From: an uncultured Spirochaetota bacterium
GTDB lineage: Bacteria > Spirochaetota > UBA4802 > UBA5550
DNA: 64,000 nt
Assembly: GCA_963827275.1 (NCBI GenBank)
Contig: CAWHAA010000005.1
Location: 1-64,000 of the forward strand
Direction: 5' to 3'
How positions within the stretch are numbered: the first letter of the stretch is position 1; each line of letters begins with the position of its first letter. Position numbers: made by a program. Below, in pieces: positions 40,401 through 43,400 of this stretch.

Positions 40401-43400
40401 TGCGCCACACTATTCCCGGACGCAGACACAACGGCCTTATCATTATCCTCATTTGGAAACCATGTTTCGATCTCTTTAAAAGCATTACGATATACACCGA
40501 GCGTTTTTTGAAAATAATCGCGCACCAGCAGAAAATCCCCGTAGCTAATTCTACTCCTGTTTCTTTCAAAAAACTCCATAATATTTTGGTTAGATATAAA
40601 CATTGCCTTTTTCCATGAATATTTCTCCAGCAACATCCCCAATATTCCATTTTCCATTCGCATCACCCCCCACATGTTTTCAACTACCATATCAGACCAT
40701 GATAATAAACGAATGGGAGGTTCGTTTAATAAAACATTATTCAATAAATTATGAATTTTTTCTTATTGACTTTCGGCTCGCCTAACAGTAGCCTTAAAAA
40801 ATCATTAAGAAATTCGGACAATTTTAGTTAAACGCCATTTCGAGCGGCGGCCGCGGTTTTTTTGTTATAAATAAAAGAAAAAAATAGGGTTGGCTTTTCT
40901 TTCGATCATATAATAATTAAGGCAATAATCTTTTCGTTCGGTTGCAGCTTAACATTACGCGGCCGCCTCTGGGCTCGCAGGTCTCTCAGTATCGTTTTAT
41001 TGGGTCTTTCTGTTGATTCATAGATATGGGATAACCGACTGACGATATTGGTATGCAACTACTGTCGGTTGCAATACATCGCATAAAGCTTTAACTGGCA
41101 GGTCCTGCGATCCCAGTCGAAACGGCGCTTAACAAAGCATGGGGCGCTGCGCGCGGCCACGAAAATTTAGACGCTGTGGCCGCGCTTGGCCTCGCGCCTT
41201 TCCGCCAGCGGCGGTACTGATTGGCGGATGTTCTAACGCACCGCCACTGGCGGGGCGCTCGGCACACCGCCCTGCGGGCGGCGTCGCCCATGCTTGGACG
41301 TTAAACGCCATTTCGAGCGGCGGCCGCGGTTTTTTTGTTATGAATAAAAGAAAAAAGAGGGTTGGCTTTTCTTTCGATCATATAATAATTAAGGCAATAG
41401 TCTTTTCGTTCGGTTGTAGCTTAACATTACGCGGCCGCCTCTGGGCTCGCAGGTCTCTCAGTATCGTTTTATTGGGTCTTTCTGTTGATTCATAGATATG
41501 GGATAACCGACTGACAATATTGGTGTGCAACTATTGTCGGTTGCACTACATCGCATAAAGCCTTAACAGACAGGTCCTGCGATCCCAGTCGAAACGGCGT
41601 TTAACAAAGCATGGGGCGCTGCGCGCGGCCACGAAAATTTAGACGCTGTGGCCGCGCTTGGCCTCGCGCCTTTCCGCCAGCGGCGGTGCTGATTGGCGGA
41701 TGTTCTAACGCACCGCCACTGGCGGGGCGCTCGGCACACCGCCCTTCGGGCGGCGTCGGCCATGCTTGGACGTTAAGCGCAATACAGCGCTGGCTTTGGG
41801 TTGGCTTTATGGTTGGTCCGGCCTCCTGCCGGCCTTTAATTATGAATTTCATTTTTAAAATATTCTTTTTCATTATTATAGGTTTTTATATATGAAAAGA
41901 TTAATTACTATTCTATCAATAACTTTCACTTTAATTTATTGTGAAAAATCTTATTCTAATTATTATCTGGGTCCTTATATATCTGTAGCTGTAGGTCAAA
42001 TGGCTCATACACAATCTTCAATTCGAGAAGTTTATGATAATTATATTTTTGGCGGAGGTGGAATCTTCCAAACATCGATTTATCGACGAGGTTTATATAA
42101 TTATAGATTAAATTTTTGTTTCGAAAAGATTTATATACCACATACGACCAAACTTGGAACTGATTTTAGAAATACAATTCGAGGAAATTTAATTAATACA
42201 ATTGCTTATTCAATTTATAAAAAAAGGAATTATAATTTATGGATCGGGCCGCAAATCGGTCTTCATATTTTATGGGGCGACAATTATCTAAGTGATAATA
42301 AATATAATAAATTGAATACGATCCTCATTTCATCAATAATAATGAATCCTGAACTACCACTAATCATTTTACTATATTCTTCGAATAATTATGTGAAATT
42401 TACTGATTTTATTTTTAGTTTTGCTCCGGAAATTGGCATTGATATAAATGCAACAGACTTTTTAATTATATCATTGGAAAGTGGATTGAGAGTAGGTATT
42501 CATTTGCCAACAAATAAAATATCTAGCTCTGTTACATTGTATAGATTTGAAGGATTTTTTAATCTTTCATTTTTATTTAGAATTAACAAAGAAGAAAATA
42601 CATAATTTTATTATGCCGCCGCCGTCCTGACGGCGGCAACTTGAACTGGGAGCGCTGTACTGCGCTTAACAAAGCATGGGACGCTGCGCGCGGCCACGAA
42701 AATTTAGACGCTGTGGCCGCGCTTGGCCTCGCGCCTTTCCGCCAGCGGCGGTGCCGATTGGCGGATGTTCTAACGCACCGCCACTGGCGGGGCGCTCGGC
42801 ACACCGCCCTTCGGGCGGCGTCGCCCATGCTTGAACGTTAAACGCCATTTCGAGCGGCGGCCGCGGTTTTTTTGTTATAAATAAAAGAAAAAAGAGGGTT
42901 GGCTTTTCTTTCGATCATATAATAATTAAGGCAATAGTCTTTTCGTTCGGTTGCAGCTTAACATTACGCGGCCGCCTCTGGGCTCGCAGGTCTCTCAGTA
43001 TCGTTTTATTGGGTCTTTCTGTTGATTCATAGATATGGGATAACCGACTGACGATATTGGTATGCAACTACTGTCGGTTGCAATACATCGCATAAAGCTT
43101 TAACTGGCAGGTCCTGCGATCCCAGTCGAAACGGCGCTTAACAAAGCATGGGGCGCTGCGCGCGGCCACGAAAATTTAGACGCTGTGGCCGCGCTTGGCC
43201 TCGCGCCTTTCCGCCAGCGGCGGTACTGATTGGCGGATGTTCTAACGCACCGCCACTGGCGGGGCGCTCGGCACACCGCCCTTCGGGCGGCGTCGCCCAT
43301 GCTTGGACGTTAAACGCCATTTCGAGCGGCGGCCGCGGTTTTTTTGTTATGAATAAAAGAAAAAAGAGGGTTGGCTTTTCTTTCGATCATATAATAATTA

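Follow-up and report, generated by a model that had tools for sequence, protein, structure and literature searches.

The locus analyzed here raises the question of why the gene of an integron integrase, intI, and those of several Y1 transposases carry ahead of their starts the same sequence motif as comM and dprA, and which factor reads that motif. This study used a 64,000-nt stretch of DNA (the window; C5:1-64000) from G000, a genome of 4.13 Mb that is 92% complete and whose proteins have homologues named after Spirochaetes or Spirochaetota. A search of genome contigs for related loci returned solely a distant Bacillota match. Gene calling on G000 was crude and missed some starts, and its comM gene is interrupted by a 28-kb island. 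In the following, numbers after G, L, f, and g denote genomes, loci, families, and genera, and A and B denote integrase clades. The features of the intI region are as follows.

39542 to 40657, minus strand: intI, encoding an integron integrase (tyrosine recombinase) of 371 aa, with its start ATG at 40657.
40666 to 40671, minus strand: a G run ahead of the intI ATG, a putative ribosome-binding site by its sequence; in orthologues, too, the equivalent codon is the start and follows a purine-rich run.
40706 to 40719, minus strand: the core of the putative shared promoter, CTCCCATTCGTTTA, a putative -10 element with CGT at 40711-40709, ending 48 nt before the intI ATG.
40706 to 40728, no strand assigned: a palindrome specific to intI, with 8-bp arms and a 7-bp spacer (CGAA-N7-TTCG).
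40729 to 40741, minus strand: the A/T tract of the putative shared promoter, comprising a putative UP-like A run and the -35 element TTTTAT.
40766 to 40794, plus strand: Pc, a putative cassette promoter of the sigma70 type (TTGACT-17-TAGCCT), which lies back to back with that of intI.
40816 to 40833, plus strand: the attI core, with GTT at 40827-40829, common to the LexA-type sister clade.
40828 to 57542, plus strand: the cassette array, which holds at least 12 attC-pattern sites, tandem copies of a 472-bp cassette, and insertions of the IS3/IS481 type.
41126 to 41306, plus strand: the first attC, the bottom strand of which is predicted to form a long hairpin (-63.4 kcal/mol under DNA parameters, from a single fold of the native sequence).

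The intI product lacks most of the IntI-specific insertion, and the region between its catalytic boxes is short. It scored 214.6 bits against TIGR02249, below the cut-off of 265, with the model matched in two stretches. All 12 attC-pattern sites lay on the plus strand, none was found on the other contigs, and tandem duplicated cassettes stood at the head of the array. The strict attI pattern matched in 3 clade-A loci, in 5 of 6 clade-B loci, and in L122, and the -35 element of Pc was kept in 14 of 19 clade-A and 4 of 6 clade-B loci. A tyrosine recombinase beside attI and a same-strand attC array, the arrangement by which a chromosomal integron is recognized, was present. The integron is thus genuine, but its integrase is atypical and not a canonical IntI.

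The motif shared with comM, dprA, and the Y1 genes comprises two blocks, an A run with a T run and, approximately 20 nt further on, (T)TCGTWT, and its shape is like that of a promoter for an ECF sigma factor. Counted from the CGT, the A run was conserved at -30 to -25 and the T run at -24 to -21 in a training set of comM upstream regions. The blocks were 16-18 nt apart, at promoter distance from the gene and in its orientation, which is the layout of an ECF promoter; the spacing shifted by approximately 1 nt, and by more in family f5. Transcription of intI is predicted to start near 40698. The palindrome CGAA-N7-TTCG was rejected as the shared motif, being specific to intI and not enriched elsewhere, and was also rejected as a LexA-type box, differing from the box of that type in this family.

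To score the motif, we built a matrix solely from relatives, using 28 of the 30 regions upstream of comM and leaving out every intI, Y1, and G000 site; training began from an anchor (CGT[AT] combined with a T run) that we took from our reading of the motif. This matrix replaced one seeded by a pattern from the intI, Y1, and comM sites, which was partly circular; an eight-site matrix of competence genes only was too sharp, giving the Y1 genes scores of -1.3 to 19.6. With the comM-trained matrix, the intI site scored 16.2 bits, ranking 21st of 4,006 predicted gene starts and 41st when every position on either strand of the 4.13-Mb genome was counted. The Y1 genes ranked between 14 and 82, and the proposal of the initial annotation that intI and the Y1 genes share the motif of comM and dprA was thereby confirmed. 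At 15 bits or more, 3,665 upstream regions gave 16 sites in real, 7 in reversed, and 0 in shuffled sequences; scores of 9-13 were noisy, as exemplified by the 12.7 bits of the G000 lexA gene on a non-CGT core.

These scores bear on the explanation that no regulation is shared at all, the intI site being an AT-rich promoter look-alike and the sites at the Y1 and ribbon-helix-helix (RHH) genes being ends of mobile elements or passively inherited. Antisense scans of intI coding regions did reach 9-15 bits in 7 of 25 cases, as a look-alike would, but 0 of 5,000 shuffles of the intI upstream region attained the native score. A further motif-like site on the plus strand within intI (40344, 15.4 bits) was taken as chance; it was not conserved in 24 other integrases.

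We then analyzed which other genes carry the motif. The comM-trained matrix placed comM 3rd, radC 7th, a lamin-tail-domain (LTD) protein 10th, and dprA 11th of 4,006, followed by an operon encoding a barrel-HhH protein (26th), queC-comF (27th), lolA-x-comEC (29th), recA (about 36th), and ssb (69th, on a weak site of 9.6 bits). The barrel-HhH operon has three genes, of which the middle one encodes a predicted membrane (outer-membrane) beta-barrel joined to an HhH DNA-binding domain. Other high scorers were nadK-recN, an RNase H-RecJ operon, a UvrD-like helicase gene, a Phd-ParE pair, and several unrelated genes. Among the family loci, the motif was found at 28 of 30 comM genes (the training set itself), 23 of 30 recA genes, and 2 of 30 lexA genes. 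The motif was present at comEC, comF, dprA, comM, radC, recA, and, weakly, ssb. This set is close to the gamma-proteobacterial competence set, which in excerpts of PMC1635313 comprises com genes, dprA, radC, ssb, and comM; by its target genes, the regulon would be one of late competence.

The same list could be read as a LexA-independent promoter of DNA damage or recombination stress that includes competence genes, with intI and the RAYT-type Y1 genes answering stress. The motif at recA, nadK-recN, the RNase H-RecJ operon, and the UvrD-like helicase gene fits that reading, as does the UV induction of comM in E. coli mentioned in the same excerpts (PMC1635313). A DNA-uptake pilus operon with a clear site was likewise not found; the genome has a single T2SSE ATPase gene, in a T2SS operon with a best score of 9.1 on a non-CGT core. 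Against a stress promoter, the motif stood at the uptake-specific comEC, comF, and barrel-HhH operons and was absent from the first-gene upstream regions of uvrB, uvrC, mfd, dinB, umuD, and gyrA; the upstream tests of uvrA, ruvB, ruvC, and radA carry little weight because their starts or operon heads were unclear. In addition, lexA promoters and the distal recA promoter had a separate palindrome, approximately CTAWAC-N4-GTWTAG, which from its place at these genes would be the LexA box. We therefore regard a stress promoter as improbable, albeit the strongest of the alternatives. The earlier assignment of intI and the Y1 genes to a DNA-uptake regulon and not to the SOS regulon held for the late-competence targets and for clade-A intI, which lacked a LexA-type box, but it needs amendment in that repair genes are included and that recA has LexA-type boxes too.

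Transposases of other types were compared in 400 nt of upstream sequence. The absence of the motif from DDE transposase genes, as claimed in the initial annotation, extended to the newly compared IS256 genes (0 of 4 above 5.3) and was seen again for rve-domain genes of the IS3/IS481 type (0 of 9 above 5.3), but IS91 had been miscounted among them. IS91 is a Y2 HUH transposase, that is, a single-strand enzyme. None of the 3 IS91 genes had the motif or scored above 5.3 in the 400 nt searched, and the generalization that enzymes acting on single-stranded DNA are wired into the regulon consequently fails for this HUH enzyme.

The six Y1 genes of G000 scored 19.3, 19.3, 18.3, 14.6, 12.2, and 9.1 bits (ranks 14, 14, 18, 25, 42, and 82). 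One more Y1-like ORF, which is degenerate, scored 15.2 bits (rank 23). All six proteins exceeded the cut-off of PF01797 (Y1_Tnp). Y1d scored 73.2 against NF047646, slightly below its cut-off of 80, and 23 against the IS200 model (cut-off 55), and GGGGWSAS terminal repeats were found at five copies; on this basis, we classify the Y1 genes as RAYT/TIRYT-type and not as IS200 proper. Y1f is a RAYT of a different type with other repeats and also has the motif. The putative Y1 promoter sits inside the element, right after the terminal repeat, and is identical in two copies; the Y1 copies thus inherit it and are not independent of one another. This arrangement is what passive inheritance or an element end would produce. 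However, only 5 of the 189 terminal-repeat copies in G000 precede a motif, which also led us to reject repeats near comM and dprA as its source, and the motif of Y1f stands beside different repeats. The spacing of the motif was moreover constant across Y1 proteins 45-70% identical.

Among relatives, the motif was found at 24 of 30 family Y1 loci and at 20 of 30 order loci, with a variant at 5 more (one best match per genome). In genus g26, a variant motif was common to comM (5 of 7) and Y1 (5 of 5) and occurred at none of the other comM (0 of 56) and Y1 (0 of 55) loci; this pattern was defined after viewing the sites and represents one phylogenetic event. The Y1 sites therefore follow the host comM variant in that genus, contrary to passive inheritance. 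A test of concordance between comM and Y1, made on 24 of 36 Y1 genomes (p = 0.0125), was given no weight because most g26 sites were missed and kinship was ignored. Taken with the intI shuffles, these findings leave a set of look-alike and passively inherited sites very unlikely.

The claim that the shared motif extends to the intI genes of relatives was also borne out, for one clade of integrases. At a threshold of at least 8, the motif was found at 18 of 19 clade-A loci of the family (G000 included; the 19th scored 7.8) and at 0 of the 11 other family integrase loci. Outside the family, 3 of 4 clade-A loci had it, the fourth having an unsettled start, and 0 of 19 more distant recombinases did. 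The six clade-B loci instead showed TTGAC(A/G) and a TA-type -10, with CGAAAC-N4-GT in the spacer between them, which places a LexA-type box between the -35 and the -10 of a sigma70 promoter. At clade-A intI, the best LexA-type score was 4.6 bits (G000, -3.1), on a weak matrix that gave 5.8-9.0 in 4 of 6 clade-B loci and 8.6-10.9 in some comM and Y1 control upstream regions. The LexA-type box is thus distinct from the shared motif, as the initial annotation had held, and is absent from clade-A integrases; one locus outside the family, L291, carries both signals. In a quick tree of 53 of 54 integrase rows (L307 was left out as a fragment), which is unrooted among them, clades A and B each occupied one side of a starred branch with support 98.

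The promoters of the two clades align in register (-35, 5 nt, CGA, -10). CG at -13 was found in 13 of 19 clade-A intI sites, compared with 1 of 25 Y1, 1 of 28 comM, and 1 of 23 recA sites, and this CG, part of the intI palindrome, aligns with the left half of the clade-B LexA-type box. From the alignment in register and the kept CG, we infer that one promoter was converted into the other, and the clade-A intI promoter probably arose by in-place conversion of a sigma70/LexA promoter that the sister clade still holds. The direction, from LexA to the motif, is assigned because LexA control of integrases has been published as ancestral; excerpts of PMC3108266 infer this ancestry and tie the loss of LexA control to inactivation of the integrase.

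We further examined the RHH genes, nine of which had been described as unrelated. If the 10 tandem-RHH paralogues of G000 were meant, that description is wrong, since they form one family whose members were 40-64% identical to one member among 8 aligned. All 10 carried the motif. The family is chromosomal, and the other genomes that have it hold between 4 and at least 49 copies; in g26, 0 of 9 loci had the motif, and genera g27 and g34 have the RAYT without the RHH family. A model of the 147-aa protein showed two RHH units and an extra C-terminal hairpin, and the structures that Foldseek matched best were three F-relaxosome chains (E 2.5e-3, weaker than the 1e-3 line), which we take to be TraY by their size and number in excerpts of bioRxiv 2024.12.19.629322. 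A literature search on DUF1564 found no paper, and a role of the RHH protein beside the HUH transposase is a guess.

The best candidate for a factor reading the motif was an ECF sigma factor of 184 aa (G000:C4:515767-516321), single-copy in G000 and present in one copy in 57 of 61 family genomes. In a sample of the phylum, all matches at E 1e-27 or better fell within the order, and the protein reached the cut-off of none of the named NCBIfam equivalogs or subfamilies listed. In family f4, an orthologue was found in 0 of 7 genomes (two weak matches were generic ECFs), and the comM motif, the RAYT subfamily, and the RHH family were each likewise found in 0 of 7. Across 50 order genomes, 28 had both the sigma and the comM motif, 7 neither, 12 the sigma only, and 3 the motif only; all 7 with neither belong to one family, and 15 of 50 are discordant. 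Many of the sigma-only cases are in family f5, where the CGT persists and the spacing is altered. At the position of RpoE Asn84, which sets specificity at -13/-12 according to excerpts of PMC7776599, the sigma had S in 8 of 8 g26 orthologues and D in 22 of 22 other order-level orthologues. The g26 variant retains the CGT, even though -13/-12 is where the changed residue should act, and G085 combines a sigma with S and a near-canonical comM site. The motif was absent upstream of the gene of the sigma itself (0 of 20), and autoregulation is thus not indicated; about four direct repeats at 21-22 bp lie in that upstream region, suggesting an activator.

This distribution leaves some room for a competence promoter that is read by another sigma factor, or by sigma70 with a ComK-like activator on the A/T tract, the ECF gene co-occurring by descent. 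The three genomes with the motif and no sigma orthologue, the 12 with the sigma and no scoring comM site, the restriction of co-absence to one family, and the D at the Asn84 position in three other ECFs of G000 are all compatible with a different reader. Those three genomes (G067, G104, and G117) are, however, MAGs that are 77-94% complete, the CGT is invariant and stands in place of the sigma70 TA at -10, and the change of the sigma residue coincides with the promoter variant in g26. We accordingly judge a different reader to have a slim chance, below that of a stress promoter.

The reading we favor, with a probability of roughly 0.7, is that a dedicated late-competence sigma factor of the ECF type, belonging to a Spirochaetota class, uses the motif as its promoter, which is common to one integrase clade and the RAYT elements. 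The sigma, for which the 184-aa protein is the candidate, would read the A run with a TTT(T/C)A -35 and, after 16-17 nt, a (T)CGTWT -10, and it would transcribe comEC, comF, dprA, comM, radC, a second recA promoter, and the operon of the outer-membrane barrel-HhH protein. One clade of chromosomal integron integrases would have been rewired into its regulon, and in the TIR-flanked RAYT elements this promoter would lie within the element end. Both IntI and RAYT would then be made as the cell turns competent, ready for incoming single strands. Such timing suggests that gene shuffling is tied to DNA uptake. It differs from the earlier proposal that the genes are switched on when DNA enters, since a sigma-driven promoter would fire when competence develops. 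Induction triggered by the entry of DNA is the known SOS route.

We tentatively extend this reading, with more doubt than assurance, to an undescribed competence system that would combine an ECF sigma with pilus-independent uptake through an outer-membrane barrel-HhH module and with a regulon into which editors of single-stranded DNA have been drawn. In that system, the integron clade would have exchanged LexA for the competence sigma by point conversion, and the RAYT and the TraY-like RHH protein, possibly a RAYT accessory factor, would depend on the sigma and be lost where it was lost. If this extension is true, cassette capture and repeat mobilization are a programmed part of transformation. 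The favored reading itself predicts a competence sigma and its regulon in uncultured spirochaetes, which is testable in E. coli, and under it the capture of cassettes during transformation would have a direct basis in regulation.

A literature search, mainly of the main text of open-access papers and including excerpts of PMC12378983, PMC3607928, and PMC3330819, found neither an integrase controlled by a competence-sigma promoter nor a spirochaete regulon of this kind; tables of ECF motifs could hold the motif. The closest integrase is intIA of V. cholerae, which transformation induces through SOS with added control by CRP (excerpts of PMC8191803 and PMC8876359), and cassettes are recruited there from transforming single-stranded DNA (excerpts of PMC12614218). 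Induction of the integrase is coupled to natural transformation in V. cholerae and, judging from the promoter, would be so in the spirochaete. The link in V. cholerae is nevertheless indirect, running from single-stranded DNA to SOS and through catabolite control by CRP, whereas the spirochaete intI has no LexA-type box and has the same putative promoter as comEC, dprA, and comM. Integrases are generally regarded as dependent on LexA control. Unlike the integrases in excerpts of PMC3108266, in which LexA control was lost with inactivation, those of clade A would have replaced it on intact genes; these intact integrases appear to use the competence promoter instead of LexA, and their LexA-type sisters serve as a natural control.

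The Y1 elements resemble the TIRYT/TIRtron elements, Y1 transposases flanked by GGGGWSAS repeats, for which excerpts of PMC3733652 suppose RAYT expression by readthrough. The spirochaete transposases have repeats with the same motif, but a dedicated putative promoter of host type lies between the repeat and the gene. The RHH protein shares with TraY of the F plasmid a tandem arrangement of two RHH units; it differs in being chromosomal and multi-copy and in its extra C-terminal hairpin. Streptococcal ComX and SigH of the Firmicutes are alternative sigma factors with an AT-rich upstream tract that transcribe comEC, comF, dprA, radC, ssb, and recA. Their -10 element is different, and the spirochaete candidate is an ECF-type protein. 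To our knowledge, no integron integrase belongs to the ComX or SigH regulons.

For the RAYT genes, earlier searches of the literature had found no such link, but there is a precedent: yafM, a RAYT gene of E. coli, is reported as part of the Sxy-induced gene set in excerpts of PMC5581495, which cites Sinha et al. 2009. There a RAYT is reportedly up-regulated with the competence program, and the spirochaete RAYTs would be so too, as judged from their promoter. The yafM gene belongs to another phylum, answers to the CRP-Sxy regulator, and is single-copy and REP-linked, whereas the spirochaete RAYTs are multi-copy and TIR-flanked, with a putative promoter inside the element that is conserved across the class. 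The spirochaete genes lend support, from another phylum and with another regulator, to the view that RAYTs work on or together with incoming DNA, which bears on their role in the host.

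Integron features within intI, the integron integrase gene, and along the cassette array:
40344 (+), within intI, a motif-like site directed at the cassette array
40828-43785, at the array head, a 472-bp cassette in tandem
47020 and 51070, further down the array, recurrences of the same cassette
The 472-bp cassette has 6 starts in total and carries no long forward ORF of clear family. The site at 40344 was not conserved among the intI orthologues.

The terminal repeats that flank Y1 transposase elements were also found in other arrangements. At G000:C1:94846 (-), a terminal repeat precedes a strong site scoring 21.0 bits that has no Y1 gene behind it, and this pair is perhaps the leftover of an element end. 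The Y1 genes of loci L232 and L236 (genus g5) have a terminal repeat near the start in reversed orientation, and the motif is absent from both genes.

The multi-copy tandem ribbon-helix-helix family (L015:3704-4147 and 9 paralogues) has a predicted TraY-like fold and is similar to DUF1564 (0.90); one copy lies between umuD and umuC.

A 28-kb island (G000:C5:288985-317231; L037, L370) interrupts comM near codon 350, and its cargo comprises an EcoRII-like restriction-modification pair, a helicase and IS elements. In genomes G006, G007, G012, G029 and G096, the match to comM likewise stops around codon 350. A second comEC at a contig end (G000:C7:339356-340153; L042) is gamma-proteobacterial-looking in sequence and may represent contamination. 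A second DprA-domain gene (G000:C10:362045-362596), divergent from the first, lacks the motif.

Upstream of the candidate ECF sigma gene (L057:1250-1446), approximately four direct repeats of the TTCATT type, with a period of 21-22 bp, precede a weak sigma70-like promoter and are present in several genus relatives. This repeat set is possibly an activator array.

A three-gene operon with the motif at its head (G000:C4:164482-168391; L003:259-4168) encodes probable envelope proteins, among them a 430-aa protein with a predicted beta-barrel and HhH domain. We regard this operon as a candidate pilus-independent DNA-uptake module, which presumably resembles the uptake genes of Bacteroidota.
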